This document shows positions 39,738-59,571 of a stretch of DNA of 64,000 nt, piece after piece. Positions within the stretch are counted from its first letter, which is position 1. Every line of letters begins with the position of its first letter. Position numbers and translations under genes: made by a program. Under the pieces are notes generated by a model that was not told the DNA's origin, ran no database searches, and worked only from the letters and a program-made list of their open reading frames with translations. This DNA comes from Myxococcales bacterium (GTDB lineage: Bacteria > Myxococcota_A > Bradymonadia > UBA7976 > UBA1532), in assembly GCA_020633435.1 (NCBI GenBank), contig JACKDP010000002.1:695788-759787 (forward strand), written 5' to 3'.

Positions 39738-41768
39738 GTGAGCGCTTTGGCCGAACGGTTCGCCGGCATCCCGGCGGAGACGCTGCAACGCTGGTACGCC
39801 CTGACCCACCTCGGGCGGCTGCTGGAAGACCGCGCCGTGGGGTACATCCGCAAGGCGAAGGGGTGGAGCTACCACGCCCCGTTCGCCGGGCACGACGGCA
39901 TCCAGCTCGCCCTGGGCCTGGCGTTCCGGTGGGAGAAGGACTTCCTCTTCCCCTACTACCGCGACATGCTCACCGTGCTGGCGGCCGGCATGACCCCCGA
40001 GGAGATCATCCTCAACGGCCTGTCGAAGGACGGGGACGTGGCCGGCGGCGGCCGCCATATGTCCAACCACTTCGCCAAGCCCGCGGTCGGCATCCAGAAC
40101 GTGTCGTCGTGCACCGGGAACCACACGCTGCACGCCGTGGGCGTGGCCCGGGCCATCAAGCACTACGGCGACGACGCCGTCGCGTTCTCCAGCCAGGGCG
40201 AGTCGTCCACCAGCGAGGGCTACGTCTACGAGGCCCTGAACGGGGCCTGCCGCGAGCAGCTCCCCGTCATCTTCGTGGTGCAGAACAACGGCTACGGCAT
40301 CTCGGTGCCCACCTGGGAGCAGTCGGCCAACACGACGGTCTCGGAGAACTACCGGGGCCTCAAGCACCTGCTCATCATCAACGTGGACGGCACCGACTTC
40401 GTCGACTGCCACCGCGGCATGCAGCGGGCGCTCGAGTACGTGCGCAGCGGCGAGGGCCCGGTGCTCCTGCACGCGCAGTGCGTTCGCATCGGCGCCCACT
40501 CCAACTCCGATCGCCACGAGCTCTACCGCGACGACGCCGAGATCGCCGAGGCGCTGACCCACGATCCCCTGCCCCGCCTGCGCGCAGAGCTGCTGGAGGC
40601 GGGGCTGGCCACCGAGGCCGACCTGGCCGCGCTGGAGCAGGCCAACGAGGCCCAGGTCCAGGCCGCGGCGGACGCCGTCGAGGAGGCCCCCGATCCGGAT
40701 CCGGCCACCGTCGCGACGTTCCTCTACCCCCCGGCCTACGAGCCCGTGGAGACGCCCACGCCCGCCGAGGGCGAGAGCTGGAAGATCCGCGAGGCCATCA
40801 ACGAGACGCTGCACGCCGAGTTCGAGCGCAACCCCGACACCTTCCTCTGGGGCCAGGACGTGGCCTCCAAGGAGAAGGGCGGCGTGTTCCTCGTGACCAA
40901 GGGCATGCAGCAGGCCTTCGGCCGCGGCCGCGTCTTCAACGGGCCCATCGCCGAGGACTACATCGTCGGCACCGCCAACGGCCTGTGCCGCTACAAGCCC
41001 GAGATCCGCGCGGTCATCGAGGCGGCCCAGTTCGCCGACTATGTGTGGCCGGCGATGGAGCAGATCGTCGAGATGAGCCATGAGTACTGGCGCACGCGGG
41101 GGCAGTTCTCCCCCAACGTGACGCTGCGGCTCTCCAGCGGCGGCTACATCGGCGGCGGCCTGTACCACTCGCAGAACACCGAGGCCATCTTCGGGCACCT
41201 GCCCGGGGTGCGCATCGTGGCGCCGGCCTTCGCCGACGACGCCGCCGGCCTGCTGCGCACCTGCATCCGCAGCGAGGGCATGACGTTCTTCCTGGAGCCA
41301 AAGTTCCTTTACAATCAGCCCTTTGCGGCCACCGTCCGCCGCGACGCCGAGCACGCCATCCCCTTCGGGAAGGCCCGCATCCGCCGGCCCGGCGACGCCG
41401 CCACCATCGTCGCGTGGGGCACGCCGGTGCACTGGAGCCTGCGCGCCGCCCAGAAGATGGCCAAGGAGGGCGCCGAGGTCGAGGTCATCGACCTGCGCTC
41501 CATCAAGCCCTGGGACTTCGACACGGTGGCGGCCTCCGTGAAGAAGACGGGGCGCCTGCTGGTGGTGCACGAGGACCACCTGACCAACGGCTTCGGCGCC
41601 GAGATCGTGGCGGTCGTGGCCGATCGCCTCTTCGAGTGGCTCGACGCGCCCATCCGGCGGGTCGGGGCCCTCGACGTCCCGGTGGCGTTCTCGCGTATCC
41701 TGGAGAAGGCCATCCTGCCCCAGGAGTCCGATGTGCTGGAGGCGCTCCGGGGCTTGCTGGAATACTAG
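39738..41768 (+). CDS. fused alpha/beta E1 component of a 2-oxoacid dehydrogenase (TPP-dependent)
   Basis: N-terminal E1-alpha features (YRDML...GMT, GGGRHMSNHF, TPP-binding GDDAVAFSSQGESSTSEGYVYEALN). C-terminal transketolase-like pyrimidine-binding and C-terminal domains. GTG 39738 is preceded by a GGAGGA Shine-Dalgarno sequence; an alternative GTG lies at 39717. Confidence 0.85.
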   Translation: MSALAERFAGIPAETLQRWYALTHLGRLLEDRAVGYIRKAKGWSYHAPFAGHDGIQLALGLAFRWEKDFLFPYYRDMLTVLAAGMTPEEIILNGLSKDGDVAGGGRHMSNHFAKPAVGIQNVSSCTGNHTLHAVGVARAIKHYGDDAVAFSSQGESSTSEGYVYEALNGACREQLPVIFVVQNNGYGISVPTWEQSANTTVSENYRGLKHLLIINVDGTDFVDCHRGMQRALEYVRSGEGPVLLHAQCVRIGAHSNSDRHELYRDDAEIAEALTHDPLPRLRAELLEAGLATEADLAALEQANEAQVQAAADAVEEAPDPDPATVATFLYPPAYEPVETPTPAEGESWKIREAINETLHAEFERNPDTFLWGQDVASKEKGGVFLVTKGMQQAFGRGRVFNGPIAEDYIVGTANGLCRYKPEIRAVIEAAQFADYVWPAMEQIVEMSHEYWRTRGQFSPNVTLRLSSGGYIGGGLYHSQNTEAIFGHLPGVRIVAPAFADDAAGLLRTCIRSEGMTFFLEPKFLYNQPFAATVRRDAEHAIPFGKARIRRPGDAATIVAWGTPVHWSLRAAQKMAKEGAEVEVIDLRSIKPWDFDTVAASVKKTGRLLVVHEDHLTNGFGAEIVAVVADRLFEWLDAPIRRVGALDVPVAFSRILEKAILPQESDVLEALRGLLEY

Positions 41769-41947
41769 GCGCGTGGCCTGCGCAGGGGACCCGACGCGTC
41801 GGGCCACCCCTGACCGGCGACGCGGGCGGGCCCTCGACCGGGGGCGCGCCGCGTGACACCCCGCCCGGCGCGGGGCTCAGGTCGATCACGGGAGGTCGGG
41901 CGAGCGCGGGGAGAGCGCTGGCCGGGCGAGTCCCCGCGGAGAGGAAG

Positions 41948-44900
41948 ATGAACCACTCGAAGTCCTGGCGCCTCGCGGCGGCGCTCGTCCTGCTCGGTGG
42001 CCCGGCCTGGGGCCAGTTCCCCAACGGGGCCGACTCGCAGGACATGGAGACCGGCCAGTTCTGCGCCCCCGAGCTGGGGCGCGTGCAGCTCTCGCTGGAC
42101 GCCTACGGCGCCCACGGCTCGTCCACGTCAGCCGGCGAGAACGCCCAGTTCAACCCCGCCGACGACGTCCCCGATCAGGGGTTCGTGAACACGATGTTCG
42201 AGTCGATGCCCTTCCTCTGCCGCACGCAGGGCGGGCAGACGGCGGGCACATGGCTGGAGGCCGGCGACTTCGCGGGGCAGCGCGCCCGGGTGCAGGTGGT
42301 CGACGGGGTGGTCAACTCCCAGTTCTCCGCCAACGGCATCGAGGTGTCGGCCCGGTACTGGCTGGACTGCACCGAGCTGCACCAGTGCTACACCTTCACC
42401 AACATCACCAACGCCGCCATGGACGTGGTGGCGCTGACCCACTACATCGACGGCGACCTCTTCTTCGGCGAGGGCGGCCTGGGCAACGACTACGGGGCCA
42501 CCAGCGTGGGCGCCCCGAAGACGCTCTGGGAGTTCGACGAGGGCGATGATCCCAATGATCCCACGACCTTCGTGGGCATGTACGGGGAGAACGGCGCCGA
42601 CGCGTTCCTGAACTCGTGGGAGATCGGCCAGTACTCCGAGCAGCGCGGCCGCATCGCCAACACCGCCGGTGGCTGCGCCATCCTGCGCAACGACATCAAC
42701 ATGCGCGGCCAGAACGTCGACGTGGACGGCGACTTCATCACCGACCGCGGCTTCGACGTGACGCTGGCGCTGCGCTACGACATGGGCCCGCTGGAGCCAG
42801 GCGAGGCCAGCCGCGAGCTGTGCTACGTGGTGCAGTGGGGCGTGGGCCTGCCCTGCTCCGATGAGGATCTCGACGAGATCTGCCTGCCCGACGACAACTG
42901 CCCGAGCGTGCCCAACCCCGACCAGGTGGACGAGGACGGCGACGGCGTGGGCGACGTCTGCGACAACTGCCCCAAGACGGTGAACCCCGAGCAGGCGGAC
43001 ACCGACGAGGACGGCCAGGGCGACGCCTGCGACCGCATCTTCTGCGAGCCGGACGGCCAGCCCGAGGTCTGCGACGGCATCGACAACGACTGCGACGGCC
43101 TCGTCGACATCAACCCCGATGGCTCCCCGGTGGTCGTGCCCGGCGCCTGCGCCACCGGCCTGGCCGGCCAGTGCGCGGTGGGCAACTGGGCCTGCGTCGG
43201 CGGCCGCTCCCGCTGCGCGCCCGACATCTCCCCCAGCCCCGAGGTCTGCGACCTGCTGGACAACGACTGCGACGGCAACATCGACGAGGGCACCCGCAAC
43301 GCCTGCGGCACCTGCGGCGGGCGCCCCCCCGAGACGTGCGACGGCACCGACGAGGACTGCGACGGCACCATCGACGAGGGCGATCTCTGCCCCGCGGGCC
43401 AGGGCTGCTACGAGGGCCGCTGCCTCGGCAGCTGCGGCGAGGGCGGCGCCTGCCCCAACGGCAACGACACCTTCTGCGCCGACGGCGTGTGCGTGCCGTG
43501 GTGCCAGGTCAACGGCTGTGACGTCGCCGGGCAGGTCTGCGAGGCCAACGGGGCCTGCGTGGATCCCTGCGCCGGCGTGCAGTGCGGCGCGGGCGAGGCC
43601 TGCCTGGACGGCGAGTGCGGCCCGGCCCACTGCGTGCGCACCGGCTGCCCCGACGGCCAGCGCTGCCGGCCCGGCGGCTGCGAGCCCGACCCGTGCGCCG
43701 GCCGCGACTGCGGCGACGCCAGCTTCTGCCGCGAGGGCGAGTGCGTGTTCTCCTGCGCCGGCGTGGCCTGCCCCGCCGCCCAGGCGTGCTTCGACGGCCT
43801 GTGCGATGACACCGGCTGCGGCCCCGTGGGCTGCCCCGCCGAGGGCGAGCTCTGCGTCGAGGGCGTCTGCGCCGAGGATCCCTGCAAGGACGTGGCCTGC
43901 GGCGACGCGGAGACCTGCGTGATGGGCGCCTGCGTGCCCGATCCCTGCCAGGGCGTCCGCTGCCCCCAGTACCAGATCTGCGCCGTCGTGCTGGGCACCG
44001 CCCAGTGCGTCGCCAACTGGCCCACCTTCCCGGCCGAGACCGATCCCGGCGCCGGCGGGGCGGGCGGCCAGGGCGGCGCGGGCGGCCAGGGTGGCGCCGG
44101 CGGCCAGGGTGGCGCGGGCGGCCAGGGTGGCGCCGGTGGCCAGGGTGGCGCCGGGGGCGGCTTCTTCTGCGGCCCCGAAGACTGCGGCGAGCTGCCCCCC
44201 GGCCTGCACTGTCCGGACGGCTCCATGATCTCGCCGACCTGCGAGATCCAGCCCAACGACGCCTGCGACTGGGTCTTCCCCGCCTGCCCGGGCGAGGCGT
44301 GCGGCCCCGCGGCCGGCCACGACTGCGCGCCCGGCGCCGTCTGCGACTTCCCCGACAACGCCTGCGGGGCCGGCGCGGCGGGCATCTGCCAGACGCGGCC
44401 GGAGGCCTGCCCCGAGATCTACGCGCCGGTCTGCGGGTGCGATGGCGTCGAGTACGACAACGAGTGCTTCGCCCTCGGCGCCGGCACCGATGTCGCGTCG
44501 GTGGGCGCCTGCGAAGGCCCCCGCCCCTGCCGCGAGGACGAGTGCGGCCCGCCGCCCCCCGTGGCGCAGTGTGAGGACGGCAGCTTCCCCGTGATCGCGT
44601 GTGCGCGCGCCGAGGACGGCATGTGCGGCTGGCAGGTGAGCTGCCCCGAGCCGGCCGAGGCCTGCGGCCTGCCCGCCGACAGCGGCGACTGCGACGCCGA
44701 CATCCCGCGCTGGTTCCACAACGCCCAGACCGGCCAGTGCGAGCAGTTCTCGTACGGCGGCTGCGGCGGAAACGCCAACAACTTCGAGACGTTGGAGGCC
44801 TGCCAGGCGACCTGCAACGTGGACGGCCCCGTGTGCCGGGACGGCTCGTTCGCCAGCATCCTGCTGGGCGGCCGCTTCTCGGCCGGCGAGTGCTTCGGGT

Positions 44901-45319
44901 TCTGCCGCCAGGAGCTCAACCTGCACGCCTCGCCCTTCGCCGGCCCGATGCCGAGCTGCGACTGGGTGGACCTGGACCTGTGCGACGACGGCAACCCCGA
45001 CGTTGGCTGCGTGCGCCACACGGGCACACTGACGCCGGCCGGCCACGACCGCGCCCGCGCCATCGCCCGCGCGCTCCTCGGCGTGGCCCTCGAGCGCGTC
45101 TACCCCTGCGGCGACGAGTGCCCGGAGGACCTGCCCGGCATCAGCCTGCGCCTCCGCCGGGACGGCGTCGACAGCGAGCACGCCTACAGCGGGGGCCATG
45201 CCCCCGACGTCCTGGCCGACGCCGACGCCTGGTTCAACGACGTCCTGCGCGCCCTGCGCGGGTGCACCCCCTCGCCCTTCATCCAGCCCAACGCCGACTG
45301 CCGCCCCCTGGCCCCCTGA
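41948..45319 (+). CDS. large multidomain exoprotein: N-terminal unknown domain, TSP3 repeats, MopE-like CxDxDNDCDG motifs, EGF-like Cys repeats, GGAGGQ linker, Kazal domain, Kunitz/BPTI domain
   Basis: Signal peptide [23 protein letters not shown] with a GGAGAGGAAG Shine-Dalgarno sequence. [41 protein letters not shown] and [15 protein letters not shown]. Kazal: [22 protein letters not shown]. Kunitz: [51 protein letters not shown]. Confidence 0.8.
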
Positions 45320-45360
45320 GGCCGCTTGAACGCGGCCGCGCCATCGGCGAAGCTCTCGCC

Positions 45361-46764
45361 ATGGCACGCATTCTGGTGATCGACGACAACGAGACCATGC
45401 GGCTGGGCATCGCCCACACCGTGCAACGCCTCGGCCACGAGGTCGACCAGGCCGGCAGCGGCCCCGAGGGCATCGAGAAGTTCAAGAAGCGGCCCGCCGA
45501 CTTCGTGATCTCGGACCTCAAGATGGAAGGCCTGGACGGCATCGGCGTGCTGGAGGGCATCCGGCAGCTCGACCCCGACGCCCTGCTCATGATCGTCACG
45601 GGCTTCGGCACCATCGAGACGGCCGTGAAGGCCATGCAGCTCGGGGCCTTCGACTTCATCACCAAGCCCTTCCCGCCCCAGGTCCTGCGGCTCAAGGTCG
45701 AGGCCGCGCTGGCCGTCATCGAGCAGCGCCACGCCCGCGAGAAGCTGGAGCGGCACAACGAGGTCCTGCGCGAGGAGGTCGAGGAGCGCTACCACCTCGA
45801 CCCGAAGCGCCCCGAGGTGGACCACGACCTCGTCGGCGAGAGCCCGGCCATCCAGCGCATCATCGAGACCATCCGCCGCGTGGCCGGCGCTGAGAGCACC
45901 GTCTACATCTACGGCGAGAGCGGCACCGGCAAGGAGCTCGTCGCCCGCGCCCTGCACCGCACCAGCCGCCGCAAGGACGGCCCCTTCATCAAGGTCAACT
46001 GCGGCGCCCTCGCCGAGAGCATCCTGGAGAGCGAGCTCTTCGGCCACGAGCGCGGCTCGTTCACCAACGCCCACAAGCGCAAGCTCGGCCGCTTCGAGCT
46101 CGCCGACGGCGGCACCCTCTTCCTCGACGAGATCGGCGACATCAGCCCCGCCATCCAGCTCAAGCTCCTGCGCGTCCTGCAGGAGCGCGAGTTCGAGCGC
46201 GTGGGCGGCGAGGAGACCGTCAAGGTCGACGTCCGCGTCGTCAGCGCCACCAACCGCGACATGCGCAAGCTCGTCGACGAGGGCAAGTTCCGCGAAGACC
46301 TCTTCTACCGCCTGCACATCGTGCCCATCGAGCTCCCCCCGCTGCGCGAGCGCGCCACCGACATCGGCCTGCTGGCGAAGCACTTCATCGAGAAGCTCCA
46401 CCGCCGCGCCGGCAGCCGCGCCCGCGCCCTCAGCCCCGACGCCCTCGAAGCCCTCAAGCGCTACCCCTGGCCCGGCAACGTCCGCGAGCTGGAGAACGCC
46501 ATCGAGGTCGCCCTGGTCTTCGCCGACGGCGACCGCCTGGAGCTCAAGGACCTGCCCGCCCACATCAGCGGCGCCCCGCCCCGCGACTTCTTGCCGGTGC
46601 TGCAAGGGGACCAGGCGCTGCCCGACATCCTGGATGGGCTGGAGAAGCAGCTGATCTTGCGGGCGTTCGAGCAGGCGAACGGGGTGAAGACGGAGTGCGC
46701 GCGGCTGCTGGGCGTGAAGACGAGCGCGCTGTACTACAAGCTGGAGAAGTATGGGATTGGATAG
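45361..46764 (+). CDS. NtrC-family sigma-54-dependent response regulator (receiver plus AAA+ plus HTH_8)
   Basis: Receiver domain [16 protein letters not shown]...DLKMEGLDG...K. GESGTGKE Walker A and GSFTNA (GAFTGA variant). C-terminal Fis HTH. Confidence 0.9.
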
Positions 46765-49407: not shown

Positions 49408-49576
49408 GTCGCCCCCCGGGGCCTGGTTCGGAGCGTCAGGATAGCCTGATCGCCCGGAGAGCGTCTCTCCGTCTGTCTGTGGCCGACCTGCAGGTTGTGG
49501 CGAGCGGCCCGCGTGGGGTCTATTGGGATGTGGGGCGCCGGCCGCTCCGACCCACGGACCGAGGACAGACGACGTG

Positions 49577-51340
49577 ATGACGACGGCAATCCGAGCCATC
49601 CTGGCGTGCGCGCTCGTGGCGGCGACCCTGGGCTGCGACGACGACGGCGGCGAGGGGACGACAGACGGCGGCGCCGACGGCATGGCAGGCGCGGGTGGCG
49701 GGGCGGGTGCTGGCGGCGCGGGTGGCGTGGCTGGCATGGGCGGCGACGGTGGCGAGGGCGGCGTGGCCGGCATGGGCGGCGCCGGCGGCGAGCCGCCGCC
49801 CGCCGAGATCTGTGGCGATGGCGCCGACAACGATGGTGACGACGCCGTCGACTGCGACGACGCCGACTGCGCCGGCTTCCGGGCCTGCGAGGTGGCGGCG
49901 ATCTGCGATCCGCTCGCCCGCCCCATCGGCCTCGGCGAGGTGCAGACCGGCGTCTCGGAGGGCGCGGGGCGGTTCGAGGGGAGCTGCGGCGGGGGCGGCG
50001 AGAGCGCGGAGATCGTGTTCGCCTTCACCCTGGAGGCCTCGACGCTGGCCTGCCTCTCCACGGCCGGCAGCCGGTTCGACACCGTCCTGTACGTCCGCGC
50101 GGGCGACTGCACCGACGCCGCGGCCGAGATCGCCTGCAATGACGAGAGCTTGCGGGCGCCGGGCGGCGCATCGGAGATCGAGGGGCGCTTCGACGCGGGC
50201 GTCACCTACTACGTCTTCCTGGACCGGTTCGACGACGGCCAGAACGCGCCGGCCGACTTCCGCCTGGACCTGCTGGAGGGCCCCTGCGGGCAGGGTCCGC
50301 CGTGCGAGGTGGACGCCCAGTGCGATGGCCGCTGCGGCCCGGCCGGGCGGTGCGTCGGCTGCCTGGCGGACGCGGACTGCGCCGTCGGGCGGTGCGATCC
50401 GGGCGGCCGCTGCGCGGCGTGTCTGGCGGACGCCGACTGCGCGGAGGGCGACACCTGCGCGGATGGCAGCTGCACCCGCGACGGCGTGCCGGACTGCGTC
50501 GAGGCCTGCCAGGTCGTCCTCGACTGCTTCGACCCCGGCGCTCCCCCCGAGGCCTGCGAGGCCGGATGCCGCGCGGAGTCGACGCCGGAGGACCGCCTGT
50601 GCGTGACGTCGGCGCCCTCCTGCGAGGCCGTCTCGGCGTGCTTCGAGCCGGCGGATCGCTGCGACGGCGTGGTCTGCGACGATGGCCTCGTCTGCACCCC
50701 CGCCACGGGCCTCTGCGAAGACCCGCTGGCCCCGACCTGCGAGGAGGCCTGCGCGGCGCTCTCCGCCTGCGGGTTCGTGCCGGAGGCCTCGGTGCCGGCC
50801 TGCATCGACGGCTGCCGGAACGACTCGATCGCGGCCCAGCGCGCCTGCGTGGTGGCGGCGGGCTGTGACGAGGCGGCCATCGAGGCCTGCTCCGCCCCGC
50901 CCTGCGGCGGGCAGCTCTGCCAGGCCGGCCAGGCCTGCTTCGCCGAGGTCTGCCGCGACCTGCAGCCCGTCCACGACTGCGCCGATCCGGCGCCCCTCGC
51001 GGTGGGCCGGTTCTACGGGACGACCGCCGACGCGGCGTCCGCCCAGGCCGGGAGCTGCGGCGGGCAGGCGAGCCCGGAGGCCGTCTACGTGCTCGACGCC
51101 CCGGCGGGGGACTACTGCCTGCGAACCACGGGCAGCCAGATCGACTCCGTCCTGTACGTCCGCCAGGTGTGCGATGCCCCGGACTCGGAGCTGGCCTGCA
51201 ACGACGACAGCCCGCTCGCTGGGGGCCTCGCGTCGGCCCTGACCGTCGCGGGCGGCGCGCCGCTCTACGTCTTCGTCGACGCCCTGGGCGGCGGTGGGCC
51301 GTACGCCCTGATCGTCACCGAAGGCGCCTGCGCGCCCTGA
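49577..51340 (+). CDS. Cys-rich lipoprotein with two PPC-like domains
   Basis: MTTAIRAILACALVAATLGC. GGAGG linker. Two copies of ...SCGG...E.V(F/Y)......Y.L.T.GS..D(T/S)VLYVR...C......ACNDD(S/E). Central repeats of the form CxACLADADCAxGxC. Confidence 0.7.
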   Translation: MTTAIRAILACALVAATLGCDDDGGEGTTDGGADGMAGAGGGAGAGGAGGVAGMGGDGGEGGVAGMGGAGGEPPPAEICGDGADNDGDDAVDCDDADCAGFRACEVAAICDPLARPIGLGEVQTGVSEGAGRFEGSCGGGGESAEIVFAFTLEASTLACLSTAGSRFDTVLYVRAGDCTDAAAEIACNDESLRAPGGASEIEGRFDAGVTYYVFLDRFDDGQNAPADFRLDLLEGPCGQGPPCEVDAQCDGRCGPAGRCVGCLADADCAVGRCDPGGRCAACLADADCAEGDTCADGSCTRDGVPDCVEACQVVLDCFDPGAPPEACEAGCRAESTPEDRLCVTSAPSCEAVSACFEPADRCDGVVCDDGLVCTPATGLCEDPLAPTCEEACAALSACGFVPEASVPACIDGCRNDSIAAQRACVVAAGCDEAAIEACSAPPCGGQLCQAGQACFAEVCRDLQPVHDCADPAPLAVGRFYGTTADAASAQAGSCGGQASPEAVYVLDAPAGDYCLRTTGSQIDSVLYVRQVCDAPDSELACNDDSPLAGGLASALTVAGGAPLYVFVDALGGGGPYALIVTEGACAP

Positions 51341-51422
51341 GCCCCGCGGCCCCGCCGGGCGTTGCGGGTGGGGGCGCCGCTCCGCTACGCTCGGGAGGAA
51401 CGGCACGCCTCAAGGGGGCAGA

Positions 51423-51788
51423 ATGCGCAAGAAAAGCCAAAGGATTTCGATGGTTGTGGCGCTGGCGCTGGGGGGCACGACGGCCATCGCGCCGGCCGTG
51501 GCCATCGCCGGCCCCGTGCCCTCCGGGGTGGGCGTGCGGGGCAGCCAGCGGGGGGCCGACGTCGCCCGCATCGAGGAGCAGCTCGCCGATCCCGCCATCC
51601 AGGCGGCGCTGCGGCAGGCGGGGACGGATCCCGCGGAGCTGCGCGATCGGCTGCGGGAGCTGGGCGATCACGACGTGCACCTGCTGGCGAGCCGCCTGGA
51701 CGATGTGAAGGGCGGCGGCCTCATCACCGAGGTGCTCGTCATCGTCGTGCTGGTGCTGCTCATCCTGTACCTGGTCAAGCGCGTCTGA
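51423..51788 (+). CDS. small secreted protein with C-terminal TM anchor (PA2779-family-like)
   Basis: Signal peptide plus a helical acidic segment plus terminal VLVIVVLVLLILYLVKRV anchor. Stop overlaps the next start (TGATG). Confidence 0.6.
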   Translation: MRKKSQRISMVVALALGGTTAIAPAVAIAGPVPSGVGVRGSQRGADVARIEEQLADPAIQAALRQAGTDPAELRDRLRELGDHDVHLLASRLDDVKGGGLITEVLVIVVLVLLILYLVKRV

Positions 51789-52726
51789 TGCGCTGGCTCG
51801 GGCTCCTGGCCCTCGGAGCCCTGGGCTGCACGCGCGCGGCGGACATCCGGGCTGACATTCGCCGCGGGGCCGTGCCCGGCGCGCAGGTGGAGGGGGTGCC
51901 GTTCGTGGCGCAGCGCCCTGACACGTGCGGGGCTGCGGCGCTCGCGTCGGTGCTGCAGTTCGGGGGGCTGCCGGCCACGGAGCCGGCCCTGGCCGCCGCG
52001 CTCCGCACCCGCCCCGACAAGGGCGCCGTGACCTACGAGCTGGTGCTGGCGGCCCGCGCCCAGGGGGCCCTGGCGGCCCAGCGCTACGACGTGACGGCGG
52101 AGGATCTGCGCCGGGCCATCGACGCCGGCGTCGCGCCCATCGTCCTGCGCGGCGGCCTGGCCCACGCGCTGCTGGGCGTCTTCCACTACTCGGTGCTGAC
52201 GGCCTACGACCTGGACCGCGAGGTGTGGATCGGCCACGACGGCGAGGCGGCCGACGTGGTGTTCGCCTTCGATGACATGGAGGCCGACCGCCGGCGGGCG
52301 GATCGCTGGGCGCTCTTCGTGGTGGGGCCCGACGCGCGGCCGAAGGGGCTGCCGGCCGGGGTGCACCTGGAGCTGGGGGTGCAGGCCGAGGAGGGTGCGC
52401 ACGCGGAGGCGGCGGCCCACCACTACGGCCAGGCGGCCTGGACGCCGGTGAGCGCGCAGGCGTTGCTGAACCTGAGCAACGTGGCCCTGGCCGGTGGGGA
52501 CCTGGGGCGCGCCGAGGTGCTGCTGCGCGCGGCGCTGGCGGCGGATCCGACGTCGGCGGCCAGCAAGAACAACCTGGCGTGGGTGCTGCTGAAGCAGGGG
52601 CGAAGCCTGGCGGAAGCCGAGGCGCTGGCGGCGGCGGCGGCGGCGGACCCCGATGTGCACGCCAGCGCGCTGGACACGCTGGCGCAGGTGCGCGCGGCGC
52701 AGGGCAAGCCCGAAGGAGATCCGTGA
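51788..52726 (+). CDS. lipoprotein with a papain-like peptidase-C39-like domain plus TPR region (PA2778-family-like cysteine peptidase)
   Basis: Lipobox LGALGC. VPFVAQRPDTCGAAALASVLQFGG (C39-type Q..C motif). HYSVLTAYD (His). C-terminal TPR-like helices (NNLAWVLLKQGRSLAEAEAL). Confidence 0.65.
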   Translation: MRWLGLLALGALGCTRAADIRADIRRGAVPGAQVEGVPFVAQRPDTCGAAALASVLQFGGLPATEPALAAALRTRPDKGAVTYELVLAARAQGALAAQRYDVTAEDLRRAIDAGVAPIVLRGGLAHALLGVFHYSVLTAYDLDREVWIGHDGEAADVVFAFDDMEADRRRADRWALFVVGPDARPKGLPAGVHLELGVQAEEGAHAEAAAHHYGQAAWTPVSAQALLNLSNVALAGGDLGRAEVLLRAALAADPTSAASKNNLAWVLLKQGRSLAEAEALAAAAAADPDVHASALDTLAQVRAAQGKPEGDP

Positions 52727-53412
52727 TGCTGCCGTTCGACGACTTGCTGGCGCTGGCCCTGAGCCGGGATGGCTTCACCGCCCGGGAGGCCATCGACAAG
52801 GCCCCCCTCGCCGACGTGCAGCGCCTGCTGGAGGAGCTGCCGAAGCACGGCCCCCAGCCGACCATGACCCACGCGGCGCGCCAGCGGCTGTGGGCGCTGC
52901 AGCCAGACTTTCGACCCTTCGACCCCCCGGCCGACAAGGCTGCCTTCCTGGTGGAGCTCGCGGCGAGCCTCGAGGCCCGCCTCGCCGCCGGCCTGCCCGC
53001 GCGCTACTCCCCGGGAGAGAAGCTCGGCTTCGACCGCCTGCCGGCGCTGATCGAGGTCGTGCGCGGCTTCGACCCCAGCCCGCGGTCGGTGGTGGAGGAG
53101 GGCGCGCTGTACCTGGTCGAGGCCCGAATGCGGCTGCCGGGGGAGGCCGTCTTCCGGCCGCGGAACCAGCAGCTTTGCCTGCTGTCGGGGGCCTTCACCT
53201 ACTCGCTGCCTCACGCCATGGGCGACGTCCAGGTGTACCTTCAGCGCGGCCCCGCCCGCGAGGCCGCCGGCCAGGGGGTGGGCACGGTGTGGGAGCGCGA
53301 GTTGCCGTCCGTGCGGGCGCAGCACATCAGGATGGGGCTGCGGGGGGATGACCGGACGATCGGGCCGGAGGAGATCGGGGCCTGGCAGGAGGAGATCTTG
53401 AGCTGCCAGTAG
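52726..53412 (+). CDS. hypothetical protein, third gene of the C39 operon
   Basis: ATGA overlap with the upstream gene. 228 aa with no low-complexity sequence. Its C-terminus has a diverged duplicate at 57500-57705. Confidence 0.6.
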   Translation: MLPFDDLLALALSRDGFTAREAIDKAPLADVQRLLEELPKHGPQPTMTHAARQRLWALQPDFRPFDPPADKAAFLVELAASLEARLAAGLPARYSPGEKLGFDRLPALIEVVRGFDPSPRSVVEEGALYLVEARMRLPGEAVFRPRNQQLCLLSGAFTYSLPHAMGDVQVYLQRGPAREAAGQGVGTVWERELPSVRAQHIRMGLRGDDRTIGPEEIGAWQEEILSCQ

Positions 53413-53431
53413 GGGCGGGCGGCGGGGGTGG

Positions 53432-56400
53432 TCAGTCGCCTTCGGGGTTGTCGTCGGCTTCGGGTGGATCAGGCAATTCGTCCTCGGGCCAGTCGGCGAG
53501 GGAGAAGCCTTCGGGCATGACGGCCTTGTTGAGATTGAGGGCTCGCCGGATACCGAGGACACCTTCCAAGTCAGCCTTGCGCAGATCCGCCTGTCTGAGG
53601 TCTGTGCCGGTCAGGTTGGCAGACAGGAGCACCGTCCCGGCAAGCGTCGCGTTCCACGAGCGTGGCTTCCATGAGCATTGCGCGCATCAGGTTGGCGTCT
53701 CCCCCAACAGGCATCCACCAGACGGGCGCCGAACTGGCGCTTTCAGATCGGCGCCCTCCAAAGCGGGCTCCTTCAGCGTTGCTTCGATCGAGGACTGCCC
53801 CGTCTAGGTTCGCGTTGTTGAGATTGGCCCCTTCGAGCTTGGCCCCTTCGAGATTGGCCCCCCTGAGGTTGGCCCCTTCGAGGTTGGCCTTCTTGAGGTT
53901 GGCTCCTCTGAGGTTGGCCCCCTCGAGGTTGGCTCCCTCGAGCTTTGCGTCTTCCAGGTTGGCTGCCTCGAGATCGGCCCCTTCGATTACCGCCTGTCTC
54001 AGGCTGGTCCCGTTGAGGGTGGCGTGCCTGAGATTGGCGCGGACGAGATTCGCGTCATCCACGTTCGCCATGTTGAGTTGGGCTTCGGTGACCGTGGCGG
54101 AGGCCATGCTGGCACCACGGAGGTCTGCTCCATCGAGCTTCGCTCGTGAAAGGTCAGCACCCGCGAGGTTGGCCCCCGCGAGACCAGCCCCCTGGAGGTT
54201 GGCGTCGCCGAAATCAGCCCCGACCAGCATCGCCGAGCGTAGGTTTGCTCCCTCAAGGTTGGCCCCCCGAAATCGTGCATCCGAGAGCTTTACGCCTCCA
54301 AGCAGCTGGCCGCTGAGATCAGCCCCGCAGAGGTTCGCCCCGCTGAGGTCGGCCCTGCTCAAGCGAGCCTCGTGCAGGTCGGCGTTCTCAAGGTTGCTTC
54401 GGCTGAGCGGGAGGTTCGAGAGATCCAGCCCACATCCGTCAATTCGCACCATTCGTAGCTCAGCAGGAGTTCCTCGCGCAATGTGGAGCGCGACGAGCGA
54501 CCGAACAGGATCCGCGTCCGCCAGTTGAAGCCGCGTCTCACCAAGTTCACAACGGAGGGCCAGAGCGACCCTGCGAAGGTGGAGGCGCAGATCCTCGCGG
54601 GGAATGCTGGTCGGGCCAAGCTGATTGCCCAGGCGCTCATCGCGAAAGCAGTCTTCAGCCACCCGGGCGATGGAGGCGGCCTGGCCACCCCTTCTCGCAA
54701 GGGCGACGAGAAAGTCGAAGGACTCATTGTCTTCCTCAAGCAACCGCGCTCCAAGGAGCGCCGCCTCCTCGAACGGTTCCGTGGTCAGCCGAGCCCGCCA
54801 GTACCAGGCCACAAGGTAGTCGCGAAAGGTACGGTCGCCGGTCTCGACTGCCAGGTCGTCAGTCAAAGGCTCAAACTGCAGGCCCAGCATGACGCCGCGA
54901 TTGATGAGCTCGAAGGCAGGGCCTGCCTCCAACTCCAACTCCTGCCGCAGGACGACTTCGACATGGCGTTCGAGCAGGGCCTTCCCGACGTGGGCCTTGC
55001 GCCTGCTCTCCCACGCAATGCGCCCGAGAAGCCAGAGCAGGGCTGTCGCCGGCTCCGCATCCTCGCTCACGAGGCCTCGCATCGCGAGGCGGCGCCGCAG
55101 CTCCATCGCACTTCTGCGCACGACCTTATGGCCCTTGTCGTGGACCGGGTCCGGCTCGTACACGCACTTCGATCGGGTGAGCTGCTCGAAGTAGCGGCCG
55201 TAAACGTCAACGACGTCGCTGCCCTCAGCGGCCTCGACGCGCCAGGTCCAGGCGATCATGAAGAGCAGAATCGGCGTGCGCGCCAACTCCGCCATGCCGC
55301 GGGCCTCGATGGCGGCTCGGGTGATGGTCAGGCGTTCTGGATCGACCCGGTCCGTGGCGTTCGTGCGCCAGGCTTCAATCCACTGGTCGATCTGGCTGTT
55401 CGAGAAGCTCTGGATTCTGAAGCGCCGCACCGTCCCGTTGAGACCCTGGAGCAAGGCTGGCCGGGAGAACACGACGATCCGGCAACGATCGGTCGTGTGG
55501 TCGTCCAGGTGCTGGAACAGATCGCCGAGCTTCTGGGCGTCCAGGTGTACCTCGTCCAGGCCATCAAGGATGATGAGGACCCGCTGGCCATCGGTCGGCA
55601 GCGCAAGGGCCGCGTCGTCGGTCCCCAGGTGCGGGCCGTCCGCGTCGGCGAGCTGCCCGCGCTGGGCCCGCCGGACCATCGTGGCCAGGCTGGCGTCGTA
55701 GGCGTGGGCACAGCGGACGAAGACCGGAAACCAGGCGTCCACGGGGGCAGCCGCATTGAGCCAGGCCGCGGCCAGGTCGGCGGCGAGGCGGCGAGCCGAC
55801 AACGACTTGCCATGGCCGAAGTCGGCCTGGACGACGGCCACGGATGGCTTGTCCCCGAGCCAGGAGGTCAGCTTCGCCTGGATTGGCCTGGGGTTCTCGT
55901 GGGGTCCCTCGGGCGCGCAGACGGGCTCCACGTAGACCCGCCCCAGGGGCATGGGCGGCAGGTCGGGGGGGCTCTCGCGCCGGTTGCCGAACACGTGGTG
56001 GTCGGGCCAGATGCAGAAGTCCCAGGCCAGGTGCTCCCGGATGGCCGCCGCGTGCGCACCCGAGGAGAGGGCGGCCCGCAGCGGCTCGCCCACTGGCGAC
56101 GCGCGCAGCCGGGCGAAGGCAGCCCGGAAGTCCCGGTGGAACTGCTGGATGGTGTGAGGTTCCGCTGGCGCGTCGACCAGGTCCTCGTCAGCGAACAGCC
56201 CCCAGAGCGTCTTGAACGCCGGGCTGCGGGTGGGGCAGCCCCGCAGAAGTTCCAGGTGCTCGAGGCTGGGCTTCCCATCCGCGGTGGTCGACGCGGGCAG
56301 CGAGCGCTCCGTGGCCGTTCGCACCACCGCTTCGAATCCTTTTTTCTTTCCATTCAAGATGTCGGCATTGCCCGCCCAGTGGGCGCGCCAGGCCTGGGCG

Positions 56401-56606
56401 AAGGCGCCGATGACCATCGCCTGGTGGGCGGCCGCCGCGTCCGCGGCCACGGGTGCGCGCAGCGCCAGGACCTCCTTGAGGGAGCCGATCAGCGAAGCGA
56501 CGGCCGCGAGGCTGTTCTGCGGGTCGCCGTCCTGGGCCTTCCAGACCTTGAGTGCCAGTTCGATGGCCTTCGCCGTCAGCCCGGCCACACTCGTTGGATC
56601 CACCAT
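53432..56606 (-). CDS. STAND-class NTPase (NACHT-like P-loop plus helical arm) with an N-terminal unknown domain and C-terminal pentapeptide-repeat array. There is an apparent frameshift near 53650
   Basis: Walker A AVVQADFGHGKSLSARRLA. Walker B RVLIILDGLDEV. Long A(N/D)LxG pentapeptide run (ANLEGANLRGANLKKANLEGANL...). The repeat continues in another frame (ORF 53432-53632: ANLTGTDLRQADLRKADLEG) after the stop at 53571. Start MVDPTSV at 56606 with a GGAGGTG Shine-Dalgarno sequence. Confidence 0.8.
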
Positions 56607-56778
56607 GCCCACCTCCCAGTGTGGATGTCGCACATGCTGTCGGGGCTGGCAAGGGTCGGCGGGCGCCGGTCGTCAAGCGGCCGGGCCTGCTGCCGACGCC
56701 TGTCCGGCCGCACCGCTGGGCGTCGTCTCGTTCGCCGTGTCGCGCACCGCAGCATAGACCGGCTCCAACGAGGAACCC

Positions 56779-57384
56779 ATGCCGATGAAGCCCGACGACC
56801 GCGTCACCGACCCCATCTCCGTGCTCCGCACGCTGTCCACCTGCGCCGGCCCGGTCGCGCTGACCCTGGTGCCGACGAGTGAGCCAGGCTACAAGACCGA
56901 CCGGGTGCGGGAGCGCCTGGCGGTCGGTCCCATCGTCCTGAAGCGGGGTGAGGCCCTCGGCAGGGCCGACCGCAACGTGTTTCCTGGCCGGCCGTTGACG
57001 ACCTCCGACGATCTCTGGCGGCTGGCCGACGTGCTCGTGGCCCAGCTTCAGCGTCGGCTGAAGTCGGCCCTGGACGACGCCATCGTGCTGGCCGACGGCC
57101 GCGTCCTGGCGGCCCTGGCGCCCGGCCTCGACGCCCAGCTCGACGTCAGCCGGGCCAGTCAGCCCGGGGCGAGCGCCGCCGTCGCGGTCGGTGTCTTCGA
57201 TTTCACGCACAGGCTGGTCGCCCGCAACGACTTCGAACGCTGGCAGTCGACGCCCGCGACAGACACCCTCGCCTTCCACTCCCGCGTCGGTACAAAGTTC
57301 CGCGAGTTGCCGCACGCCATCCACTTCTGGGACGGCGAGCACGAGGCTGTCGTGACGTTCGTCACCAACCCGTTCACCGGCTGA
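56779..57384 (+). CDS. hypothetical protein divergently transcribed from the STAND NTPase
   Basis: 201-aa ORF with balanced composition. 172-nt divergent intergenic region shared with the STAND gene. Confidence 0.5.
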   Translation: MPMKPDDRVTDPISVLRTLSTCAGPVALTLVPTSEPGYKTDRVRERLAVGPIVLKRGEALGRADRNVFPGRPLTTSDDLWRLADVLVAQLQRRLKSALDDAIVLADGRVLAALAPGLDAQLDVSRASQPGASAAVAVGVFDFTHRLVARNDFERWQSTPATDTLAFHSRVGTKFRELPHAIHFWDGEHEAVVTFVTNPFTG

Positions 57385-57499
57385 ACCGGCGACGCCACGC
57401 CAGGACAATGCGCGCGTTCGGCCCTCGGCCCACAAGGGAGGATGACCGGGGAGGCCGGGGTCCGGCCCGCGTCGGCCGCGTCCTCGTGGTCGGCCGTGT

Positions 57500-57705
57500 C
57501 CCATGACCTGGGGGACCGGCGGGTCGTGCTGGAGCGTGAGCCACTCCGGGAGGTCGCTGGGCACGAGCCGGGCGGGGTCTGGGAGCGAGACCTGGCGTCG
57601 GCGCGGGCCCAGCACATCCGCTGCGGCCTGCATGAGGGGGACGACCGGACGGTGCCGCCCGAGGAGCTGGGCGTGTGGCAGTGGGCCGTCGTCGCCTGCA
57701 TGTAG
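57500..57705 (+). pseudogene. 3' remnant, paralogous to the C-terminus of the 52726-53412 gene
   Basis: HDLGDRRVVLEREPLREVAGHEPGGVWERDLASARAQHIRCGLHEGDDRTVPPEELGVWQ aligns with HAMGDVQVYLQRGPAREAAGQGVGTVWERELPSVRAQHIRMGLRGDDRTIGPEEIGAWQ. No N-terminal part is present. Confidence 0.5.
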
Positions 57706-57819
57706 CCTGCGGTTTGCCCGTGGATGCCTGATCTGCCATGGTAGGAGGCCGATGGCTGATCGGGCAGCGATGGAGGCTCTCTGGCCGTGGAACGCGTTGA
57801 AAGTACACGGAGTTTGACC

Positions 57820-58695
57820 ATGCGCCTGCGGTGGGCGGCGCTCGGGCTCGCGCTGCTGGCGACGGGCTGCAGCTTTGGGAAGTACCACCGGCTGCTGGTG
57901 GCTCACGAGGAGGCCGCGCCGACGCTGGCGGCCCGGTTGAAGGCCGCGCCCGTGGTCTACGTGCGGGAGCTCTTCATCTGGCGGCCCGGCGTGGCCGAGG
58001 CCACGCTGTGGCGGCCGGACCTGGCGGAGGGCGGCGCGAGCCTGGAGATCCAGCGCGGAGATGCGCTCCTGCGCAACGACTTCGCGCAGCGGCTCGCCGG
58101 GTACTGGGAGGAGCAGGGCGTCGCGAAGACCCTGGTGATGCTCCCGGACGGGGTGCCCGATCCGGCGGGGCTGGTGGTGCGGCCGGTGGTGGTCGGCATG
58201 TACCCGATGGACGCCGGCTGGAGCCACGCGACGCTCGAGATCACGGACGGCGGCGGGGACGAGGGGGTCTACTTCGCCCGGGTGGACCTGCCGACGCTGG
58301 TGGGGGAGCACGAGGCCCGGGAGCTCTTCAAGCGGCGTGACGCCGTCTACGTCCAGTCCATCGCGCACGCGCACCTGGCCTGGGCGGTCGCCGGTCTGGT
58401 CGGGACGGGGACGCTCCCGCGCTCGACCGACGGGCGCCCCACGGCCTGGACGTTGACCCAGAGCTTCGCCGCCGAGGCCGAGGGCAAGTACTGGGCGGAG
58501 CGGGCGCGGGCGCTCCCGCCCGGCGAGTCGACGCAGCGCGCCTACGCGCAGAAGCGGGCGCTGGATGCGCTGGAGAACTGGAACGCGCTGAACGCGCAGC
58601 TCTCGGCTGCCTGCAAGGGCGAAGGACTCACCGACATCGCGGCCTGCAGCCGGGCCGAGGCGCAGCGGCTGGGCCGCCCGGAGGGCAAGCGATGA
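57820..58695 (+). CDS. hypothetical lipoprotein
   Basis: MRLRWAALGLALLATGC lipobox. 290 aa. Confidence 0.6.
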   Translation: MRLRWAALGLALLATGCSFGKYHRLLVAHEEAAPTLAARLKAAPVVYVRELFIWRPGVAEATLWRPDLAEGGASLEIQRGDALLRNDFAQRLAGYWEEQGVAKTLVMLPDGVPDPAGLVVRPVVVGMYPMDAGWSHATLEITDGGGDEGVYFARVDLPTLVGEHEARELFKRRDAVYVQSIAHAHLAWAVAGLVGTGTLPRSTDGRPTAWTLTQSFAAEAEGKYWAERARALPPGESTQRAYAQKRALDALENWNALNAQLSAACKGEGLTDIAACSRAEAQRLGRPEGKR

Positions 58696-59432
58696 GGGCC
58701 TTCACGCACGCCTGGGCCGGTCTGCTCCCGCTCCTCGCTGGCCTCGCGGCCTGTGGCGGGGGTCCGATGGCCGCCATGGACGACACCCCGTACTTCGTGG
58801 CCCGGGGCCGCTACCCCGCCCGGGACAAGCTGCCGACGCTCACAGAGGACGCCGACCATGTGCTGCGGGGCCAGGGCTTCGTCGACATCGGCGCGCTCTA
58901 CGTGGATGGCGTCGGCACCGAGGAGGGCATCGAGAAGCTGCTGCGCGCGGCCGCTGCGCGGCGAGGGGCCGACCGCGTCCAGGTGCTGCGGCGGGGGCCG
59001 GGCTTCCTGCCGAAGGCCCAGCGATCCATCGGCGGGGTGCTGTGGCGGCAGGGCGCGGCCCCCGACTGGGAGACGCCGGCGCCGGCCCCGGCAGCGCAGA
59101 TCCGGGACCTCGAGGCCAGCCCGGTGACGACGTCGATCGAGACGCTGGACGTCGAGTGCCGCGCCGGCCGGCTGGTGGCCTGCGCGACCATCGCCGCGAG
59201 CCTCGCGCGGGCGCCTGGCCTGCTGGGCAAGCGGGTCTGGTCGGAGCGGTTCGGCGACTACCTCGTGCTGGTGCTGCACCTGGCGCAGTGGCACTGCGAG
59301 CGCGGTGATGCGATCCCGGCGTGCCGGTATGGGGCGCAGATCACGACGGACGCGGCGCAGGCGGCCGACCTGGCCCGGCGTGGGTGCGAGGCGGGGGACC
59401 AGGTGGCGTGCGGGCTGGTGGGGCCGAAGTAG
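58692..59432 (+). CDS. hypothetical lipoprotein
   Basis: ATGA overlap with the upstream gene. LAGLAACGGG lipobox. Cys pairs in the C-terminal half. Confidence 0.6.
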   Translation: MRAFTHAWAGLLPLLAGLAACGGGPMAAMDDTPYFVARGRYPARDKLPTLTEDADHVLRGQGFVDIGALYVDGVGTEEGIEKLLRAAAARRGADRVQVLRRGPGFLPKAQRSIGGVLWRQGAAPDWETPAPAPAAQIRDLEASPVTTSIETLDVECRAGRLVACATIAASLARAPGLLGKRVWSERFGDYLVLVLHLAQWHCERGDAIPACRYGAQITTDAAQAADLARRGCEAGDQVACGLVGPK

Positions 59433-59571
59433 AGGGCGGCCGCGCCTCTGGTCAGCATGCGGGGGCCCGCCGACACGGCCGCTCAGGGAGCGCCTTGTGG
59501 GATCGGGCACCTGCCTGTCGGGCTTGACCCTTGACCCAGCCCCCTGCGGCTGGCGAGGGTGCGGGCAGGCG

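Follow-up and report, generated by a model that had tools for sequence, protein, structure and literature searches.

An NLR-like NACHT-pentapeptide STAND protein gene in a presence/absence haplotype block of a Myxococcales bacterium

The NLR immune receptors of animals and fungi are believed to have evolved from bacterial NACHT proteins, and the fungal NACHT proteins HET-E/D are incompatibility proteins. Phage defence was shown for several bacterial NACHT (bNACHT) proteins by Kibby et al. (bioRxiv 10.1101/2022.07.19.500537), who also found pentapeptide repeats among the sensor-type C-termini of these proteins. In the accessible part of their Table S1, clade 9 comprises proteins of 900-1270 aa that combine NNH3 or NNH4 with NACHT and Pentapeptide, with a helical domain at about residues 1-230/248, NACHT at about 270-700 and pentapeptide repeats thereafter. 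Here we analysed a 64,000-nucleotide stretch (the window) of a Myxococcales metagenome-assembled genome (MAG; GCA_020633435.1, contig JACKDP010000002.1), in which a gene encoding an NLR-like STAND NTPase lies within a block that is present in some near-identical strains and missing in others. With moderate confidence, we favour the reading that this block is an old haplotype carrying a chromosomal, single-gene NLR-like NACHT-pentapeptide STAND protein that would act by triggered oligomerization, and that the empty form arose from it by a 4.18-kb deletion. The features of the gene are as follows.

53432-56606, minus strand: NLR-like STAND NTPase gene, with an N-terminal helical domain, NACHT, a winged-helix domain/helical arm and a pentapeptide beta-helix; the intact allele encodes 1058 aa
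56007-56606, minus strand: N-terminal all-helical domain (about aa 1-200), restricted to the NTPase family; candidate output/effector domain
55362-55838, minus strand: NACHT NTPase core (Pfam, aa 257-415)
54435-55361, minus strand: winged-helix/helical arm between the NACHT core and the repeats, from the predicted structure
53498-54434, minus strand: pentapeptide-repeat array, predicted right-handed beta-helix and presumed sensor (Pfam Pentapeptide; profile matches to solved pentapeptide proteins)

Reading frames in this window of about 73% guanine-plus-cytosine (GC) content were picked by GC at the codon positions. As read in the window, the NTPase open reading frame (ORF) spans 53571-56633 on the minus strand, and a 1011-aa frameshifted version of the protein was compared with the PADLOC models. 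The start is probably the ATG at 56606, with a GGGAGG ribosome-binding site (RBS) 5 nt upstream. Pfam matched NACHT (PF05729) at residues 257-415 with 38.6 bits (cut-off 26.7; E 1.3e-9), spanning positions 3-165 of the 167 in the profile, and Pentapeptide with an E value of 1.2e-56. The Walker A motif GHGKS, which fits the consensus GxxxxGK[ST], is encoded at 55803-55817 and the Walker B/NACHT signature DGLDE (within ILDGLDEV) at 55551-55565. For the latter, Kibby et al. (bioRxiv 10.1101/2022.07.19.500537) quote the pattern D[GAS]hDE, to which it conforms. Residues G264, G266, K267, S268, D348 and D351 are invariant in 57 members of the family. The protein is a tripartite NLR-like STAND NTPase, in which a NACHT core separates an N-terminal domain from a pentapeptide array, in agreement with a preliminary description of this DNA, which had proposed a STAND NTPase with a P-loop and a pentapeptide sensor. 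That description had not recognized the N-terminal domain of about 230 aa, and Pfam likewise gave no match for the N-terminal 215-245 aa or so, even at E<=10.

The layout and the domain boundaries of the NTPase agree with those of the clade-9 proteins in the accessible part of Table S1; the DGLDE motif fits the NACHT signature of that group, and both are single-gene systems. The hosts given there differ, being Cyanobacteria, Vibrio, Nitrospirae, Desulfovibrionales, Bacteroidetes and others, not Myxococcales. The likeness is one of listed layouts, not of sequences, and any kinship of the N-terminal domain to NNH3/NNH4 would be remote, because phmmer with this domain gave only 72 representatives among 1.84e9. 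The NTPase is a Myxococcota-specific new member of an already catalogued architecture.

An AlphaFold model of residues 1-715 was obtained with a pLDDT (predicted local distance difference test) of 79.7. A Foldseek search of the PDB with this model returned NLRP3, NLRC4, NOD2, NAIP and NLRP9 as the top 30 matches, over about 550-720 columns with a probability of 1.00, the nearest being NLRP3, NLRC4, NOD2 and NAIP5 (E 3e-7 to 1e-4, 570-690 columns). The template-modelling (TM) scores to the NLR structures are low (0.2-0.37), because the domain arrangement differs. The predicted model contains a winged-helix/helical extension after the NACHT core, in an NLR-like NOD fold. At the sequence level, the NTPase profile matched NOD2 weakly among solved structures (E 0.025), and sequence searches against solved structures gave no significant relative for the N-terminal/NACHT part. 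The animal NACHT NLRs (NLRP3, NLRC4/NAIP and NOD2) are the best structural matches to the predicted NACHT-winged-helix-helical module and have the same effector-switch-repeat-sensor logic. However, they use a leucine-rich-repeat sensor where this protein has a pentapeptide beta-helix, its N-terminus is not a CARD, PYD or BIR domain, and the sequence identity is 11-17%. The N-terminus is predicted to be an all-helical bundle, although with moderate model confidence (pLDDT 69.7).

The preliminary description had called the protein Avs-like. Avs1-5 (AVAST) are also tripartite single-protein STAND sensors, and Avs4 is among the fold matches (8dgf, E 7e-4), but it stands, like the plant NLRs, much further down the Foldseek list than the NACHT NLRs. 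The PADLOC models of Avs fail on the protein, whose NTPase is of the NACHT type. The Avs sensor is TPR-like, in contrast to the pentapeptide array here, and no nuclease, protease, SIR2 or TIR effector was recognized in the N-terminus by Pfam or fold comparison. The Avs label is therefore dropped. Searches of NCBIfam, PADLOC and PHROGs with the NTPase matched pentapeptide families only. The C-terminal 300 aa strongly match the stand-alone pentapeptide proteins MfpA, Qnr, HetL, Alr5209 and Np275/276, and the repeats are expected to form the same right-handed quadrilateral beta-helix. Unlike in those proteins, the repeats are the C-terminal module of a 1058-aa NTPase; the full-length family cut-offs were missed except for the short Alr5209 model, and gyrase protection is not implied.

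A search with residues 1-715 of the NTPase found 21 proteins, all of 700-1040 aa and with the same layout. With the N-terminal 245 aa as query, phmmer found 72 representative clusters among 1.84 billion, in which the domain is almost always located at the N-terminus of proteins of 900-1000 aa; 49 of the 51 proteins sharing it carry Pentapeptide and 41 of the 51 carry NACHT. A scan of GTDB (one genome per species) with an alignment as the query, a single-protein query having found nothing, revealed 18 loci of the family, 17 of them in organisms named as Myxococcota, with hosts including Byssovorax, Pyxidicoccus, Haliangium, Chondromyces (a tandem pair), Archangium, Nannocystis, Polyangiaceae and others. 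Surveyed in this way, the family is small and almost confined to Myxococcota. The contig of one member (L026, CAZKWG010000866.1; 3.3 kb) carries the label 'uncultured Enterobacterales bacterium' but is probably mis-binned, because all other genome matches are Myxococcota. The tandem pair in Chondromyces apiculatus DSM 436 (contig147, L014 154-6116) consists of two paralogues of the family. Between 2 and 607 aa follow the helical arm in different members of the family, so the repeat number is variable.

When the ORFs at 22 loci were clustered, the only neighbour families in common were generic ABC ATPases and kinases, and tblastn of the neighbours of two homologues (P0002 and P0004) against the window found no counterpart. 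As no neighbour is conserved, the NTPase is a single-gene module. The closest distinct homologue, P0002 (44-45% identity; L007 6092-17952), lies with a phage-type integrase on one side and, on the other, two pairs of an AAA_15/AAA_21 (PtuA-like) ATPase with a small gene and an R2K_3 protein; among the loci examined, no other context clearly resembles a defence island. Another homologue lies beside phage-tail-like genes and a kinase-STAND. No relatives of the family were found in plasmid, phage and IMG/VR collections.

Comparison of strains concerned the following features.

53413-57819: whole haplotype block between two conserved genes (strain comparison)
53497-57676: segment of 4180 bp that is absent from the empty allele (blastn and junction alignment)
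53432-53496, minus strand: last 21 codons and stop of the NTPase gene, encoding DWPEDELPDPPEADDNPEGD before the stop; a remnant of this piece is kept in the empty allele
52726-53412, plus strand: 228-aa orphan gene, GC at third codon positions (GC3) 0.95 in frame, called as a 228-aa gene in 8 metagenome contigs
57820-58695, plus strand: 291-aa lipoprotein gene, the conserved right flank; lipobox LATGC, 99.9% identical in an empty-allele contig (L002)

Contigs with either allele were retrieved by looking up the 228-aa protein in metagenome contigs. Window position 53496 is joined directly to 57677 in four contigs from near-identical strains (L002, L004, L005 and L006), and the segment is present in at least nine others (L003, L029 and L030-L036), so this segment is indeed variable among strains. 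One empty and one occupied contig (L004 and L029) belong to the same MAG assembly, GCA_020430725.1, which means that both forms coexist in one community. An exact 33-mer search for further alleles in JGI metagenomes gave 0 matches. The short-read contigs stop at 53412 and at about 57786-57815, and contig breaks at both ends are expected of an assembly bubble over the whole inter-gene block.

The empty allele retains a piece of the NTPase gene. On the left side of the junction, 84 bp carry the last 21 codons and the stop of the NTPase, and the remnant in the empty allele is 68% identical to this tail (alignment score 37 versus -0.5 +/- 4.4 for shuffled sequences, z about 8.5). It is still an open frame, ending in DCPQDDDEPPEAGAEPEDG and a stop at the homologous position, versus DWPEDELPDPPEADDNPEGD in the window, with the WP motif of the family mutated to CP. 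WP and the acidic tail are native to the family: P0006 ends in GFSLETWPEDDD, and WP is found in the consensus of 51 sequences. The presence of this family tail implies that the empty allele descends from a chromosome with such an NTPase gene. Judged from these alignments, the empty allele is a deletion derivative and not a pre-insertion state. At the junction, only an imperfect microhomology of 7-9 nt (CAGTCGG / CAGTGGG) was found. To the right of it, a 15/16-nt block matches the last codons of an 87-aa ORF at the right end of the block, but the global test was not significant.

The two alleles differ far more within the block than around it. Between the window and the empty-allele contigs, the 228-aa gene diverges by 0.6-1.2%, all synonymous, and the lipoprotein gene by 0.1%, whereas the left remnant diverges by 32% and the intergenic stretch 57706-57819 by about 10%. 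The empty allele keeps 218 bp of the block at 10-32% divergence, versus 0.1-1.2% outside it, a pattern that a recent insertion or deletion cannot give. From these sequences, the haplotypes would be either ancient with recombined flanks, or one of them would have been imported from a diverged lineage. In the favoured history, the NTPase gene, a divergent orphan ORF and the 87-aa paralogue make up an old haplotype block segregating by presence/absence, and a 4.18-kb deletion with short microhomology cut through the tail of the NTPase gene and probably also through the 87-aa ORF.

The preliminary description had instead read this DNA as a lower-GC insertion of roughly 4 kb with an Avs-like NTPase, a possible 201-aa partner and a copied 3' end as its footprint. 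The corresponding model, a recently acquired defence island next to the 228-aa gene, we now consider very unlikely. The absence of the block from some near-identical strains, the genuine tripartite STAND layout, and the homologue in L007 beside an integrase and two PtuA-like ATPase pairs would all suit such an island. However, the empty allele holds a remnant of the NTPase's own conserved tail, the endpoints lie inside ORFs, and there is no clean junction. Neither target-site duplications nor terminal inverted repeats were found at the block borders, and the only repeats detected were pentapeptide-coding ones; Pfam found no integrase or recombinase in the block, and no tRNA was found within the 64-kb window.

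The base composition, taken earlier as a sign of foreign DNA, bears on the same question. The dip in GC is real at 53413-55400 (64.9%), but the value of 60-62% given for the whole segment was too low: 53413-57705 has 68.4%, and its part at 55401-57705 has 71.4%. Against a mean over the window of 73.4% (sd 2.9%, 2-kb windows), the minimum 2-kb value, 64.5% (z about -3), does fall in the NTPase block, as an acquired island would have it. However, the dip is limited to the repeat half of the gene, where GC3 is 0.64-0.78 from about codon 600 onward, versus 0.82-0.96 before. The same drop recurs in homologues from four other genomes (L007-L010), and GC3 is 0.55-0.78 in the repeat-coding part of every family member checked, these four included. 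To judge from the homologues, the low GC is inherent to the repeat-coding portion of the genes in this family. The stretch 53806-53966 holds about 11 near-identical 15-nt units (repeat family D1), which code for pentapeptides of the (A/E)NLEG type, and it is plausible that the drop in GC3 is due to amplified units with A/T-ending codons. A second low-GC stretch in the window (45.2-48 kb, about 65%) covers a sigma-54-dependent response regulator (44599-46764, plus strand; Response_reg, Sigma54_activat and HTH_8), so GC dips of this size are not limited to accessory DNA here. The composition offers no sign of foreign origin.

The supposed footprint and partner were assessed from the right part of the block.

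57442-57705, plus strand: 87-aa ORF, diverged paralogue of the C-terminal domain of the 228-aa protein (BLASTP 47% identity, E 1e-23)
56779-57384, plus strand: 201-aa orphan ORF, divergent from the NTPase gene; GC3 0.9, GAGGA RBS
56607-56778: divergent intergenic region of 172 bp between the NTPase gene and the 201-aa ORF

A diverged copy of the 3' end of the 228-aa gene does exist, as the preliminary description held; it is neither degraded nor limited to the last 60 codons or so. By BLASTP, the translation of 57439-57702 matches residues 136-227 of the 228-aa protein (47% identity over 93 aa, E 1e-23); the C-terminal 93 aa or so are the source or a paralogue of the downstream copy. The 87-codon ORF is intact, in frame with the 201-aa ORF across one TGA (57382-57384). 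This TGA was confirmed in seven contigs from different samples (99.2-100% identity, no indels), and the 87-aa product is identical in seven contigs. Per-site differences between the duplicate and the 228-aa gene are 0.32 at the first codon position, 0.27 at the second and 0.44 at the third, with all gaps in frame, so during most of its long history the duplicate has evolved as a coding sequence. Its third positions are saturated, 44% of them differing between the two copies, whereas the strains differ by no more than 1.2%. The duplicate is therefore far older than the strain polymorphism and is not the footprint of the event separating the strains. A deletion by homologous recombination between the paralogous 3' ends was also considered and rejected, as the endpoints 53496 and 57677 do not correspond to each other within the paralogous sequences. 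PADLOC, NCBIfam and PHROGs returned nothing for the 87/106-aa copy.

As for the suggested partner, the sole match of the 201-aa ORF among 5.8 billion proteins is itself (H6706_09815). No family was found for it in Pfam, PADLOC, NCBIfam and PHROGs and no match in the PDB, and it is absent beside all of the approximately 20 NTPase homologues examined. In the occupied-allele contigs L031, L032 and L034, all 10 single-nucleotide polymorphisms across 55890-57815 fall in this ORF, 7 nonsynonymous and 3 synonymous, which suggests relaxed or diversifying selection on a coding-like ORF. It resembles coding sequence but is no conserved partner of the NTPase. The idea of a full-length paralogue of the 228-aa protein, with the 201-aa ORF as its diverged N-terminal portion, was not supported, since BLASTP was not significant and the Smith-Waterman score was 33 versus 32.5 +/- 5.5 for shuffled sequences. 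An in-frame blastn match of 65 nt (E 5e-4) between the 201-aa ORF and the 228-aa gene is in Ala/Leu-rich sequence and was not trusted.

The NTPase gene of this particular assembly is disrupted near its 3' end by one further feature.

53640-53760, minus strand: 7 indels and 3 substitutions, from the alignment to L003; only in the window

This cluster scrambles about 35 codons, shifts the frame and creates a premature stop at 53571, so that the last 90 codons or so are disrupted; past this stop, the other frame carries on as pentapeptide (E 4e-8) to the stop at 53432. Two independent short-read assemblies, L003 (ENA) and L029 (NCBI MAG GCA_020430725.1, protein P0001), are 99% identical to the window, and over 53560-53829 they are identical to each other with an intact frame. 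With their sequence, the NTPase is an intact protein of 1058 aa ending at 53432. The rest of the gene differs from the other assemblies by substitutions only (about 99% identity). We favour a local unpolished patch of a long-read MAG over genuine decay, because short-read contigs match over 10 kb of the flanks without any indel and the window comes from a MAG contig of 908,650 bp. It is possible, though doubtful, that the gene is instead a true pseudogene in this genome, its indels being real decay and a step towards the empty allele, in which case nothing would function here. The seven indels within 115 bp are indeed unique to the window, with the two other assemblies agreeing on the intact frame; the protein search gave no identical full-length product of the source MAG, which fits annotation as a pseudogene; and the locus demonstrably loses the NTPase gene. 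However, real decay would be expected to be scattered over the 3.2 kb of the gene, and the tight, mostly homopolymer-type indels beside a 15-nt tandem array resemble an unpolished patch.

The function of the NTPase is likely that of an NLR-like conflict sensor, by analogy. As long as no trigger is bound, the pentapeptide beta-helix would keep the protein inactive; the trigger is probably a phage component or part of another invader. Once bound to the helix, it would relieve the autoinhibition, and the NACHT module would then exchange or hydrolyse nucleotide and oligomerize, clustering the N-terminal helical domains for an output that is not obviously enzymatic. This output is probably abortive or otherwise costly, and a costly output would explain the ready loss of the gene. 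All of these steps are modelled on NLRs and the tested bNACHT proteins; the domain composition, the intact catalytic motifs, the single-gene organization, the taxonomic restriction and the strain-level turnover were observed directly.

Several results weigh against this picture of an old haplotype encoding a conflict sensor. Structure prediction revealed no enzyme-like or effector-like fold in the N-terminal domain, an outcome that the preliminary description had named as counting against its own reading. No PADLOC (2023) model matched the 1011-aa protein at E<=1. PADLOC and Pfam found no recognizable defence genes among 10 neighbours in the window, and only scattered generic matches (AAA_21-type ATPases and kinases) among 135 neighbours of the homologues. 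Pentapeptide-sensor versions of bacterial NACHT proteins are catalogued, and none of the clade-9 entries in the accessible part of Table S1 (bioRxiv 10.1101/2022.07.19.500537) is labelled as experimentally tested. As for the history, the alignments suggest that the right endpoint of the deletion is less certain than the left, with weaker support for a remnant of the 87-aa ORF there, and a simple deletion does not explain the extreme divergence of the remnants, which needs old haplotypes or introgression.

By analogy, a role in myxobacterial self/non-self recognition or developmental cell death would fit the data about as well as phage defence. As a full alternative, the NTPase would not be anti-phage at all, but a STAND switch in social biology (allorecognition, kin discrimination or programmed cell death in development) or a signal-transducing regulator, which we regard as unlikely. 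It would be analogous to the fungal HET-E/D proteins. Members of the family occur essentially only in Myxococcota, a social and multicellular group, and an enrichment of NACHT/STAND conflict systems in multicellular bacteria is noted by both Kibby et al. and Kaur et al. The deeply diverged presence/absence haplotypes in one population resemble those at self/non-self loci, the window shows no defence-island context, and the N-terminus is predicted to be helical and non-enzymatic. However, Pfam found no DNA-binding or helix-turn-helix output domain in the protein, no partner or allorecognition genes are conserved nearby, and presence/absence polymorphism is equally typical of phage-defence genes.

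The pentapeptide beta-helix is a known DNA-mimicking fold. A bolder reading, which we think quite improbable, is that the locus represents a long-lived balanced NLR-like presence/absence polymorphism in a natural myxobacterial population, its deeply diverged haplotypes set in flanks of about 99% identity and both forms found in one metagenome, with a beta-helix that would bait DNA-binding proteins of invaders or non-kin and a helical N-terminus that would be a new non-enzymatic death or signalling output. If true, the locus would resemble the NLR loci of plants and fungi with their trans-specific polymorphism. Under the favoured reading of an old haplotype with a conflict sensor, the locus adds a Myxococcota-restricted subfamily with an uncharacterized helical N-terminal domain, and a natural pair of intact and deleted alleles in near-isogenic strains would offer a ready-made comparison for function. 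It is also a cautionary case, in that a GC dip and a flanking duplicate mimicked an insertion footprint, while comparison points to a deletion and to repeat-intrinsic composition. Because the organism is uncultured and systems of this kind are already known, the find is of modest practical value.

The 228-aa gene to the left of the block is the last of a four-gene operon (49523-53412, plus strand) with overlapping stops and starts, in which it follows a 605-aa protein of unknown function, a DUF6627 gene (51450-51788) and a Peptidase_C39_2-like gene with TPRs (51788-52726). Its product gave only self-matches among 5.8e9 proteins, no match in Pfam, NCBIfam, PADLOC or PHROGs, and only sub-threshold designed-armadillo noise against solved structures. 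On the right, the lipoprotein gene is called as 263 aa instead of 291 aa in L030 (472-1263), and this contig has 23 gap positions versus the window over 57349-59257, indicating that the right flank is also strain-variable. A second presence/absence polymorphism is located 1.7 kb downstream, where the 89 bp of the window at 59441-59529 correspond to about 1.9 kb in L037 (1654-3544; MAG GCA_020430725.1). The longer form there encodes a 582-aa orphan on the minus strand, with no Pfam match and PDC-M72B (E 2.7e-4) as its sole PADLOC match. The neighbourhood seems to be generally prone to gene turnover. Further to the left in the window, a 1301-aa ORF (41414-45319, plus strand) encodes MopE-like metal-binding motifs and, at residues 1083-1134, a Kunitz/BPTI protease-inhibitor domain (E 3.4e-20), a type of domain that is unusual in bacteria.

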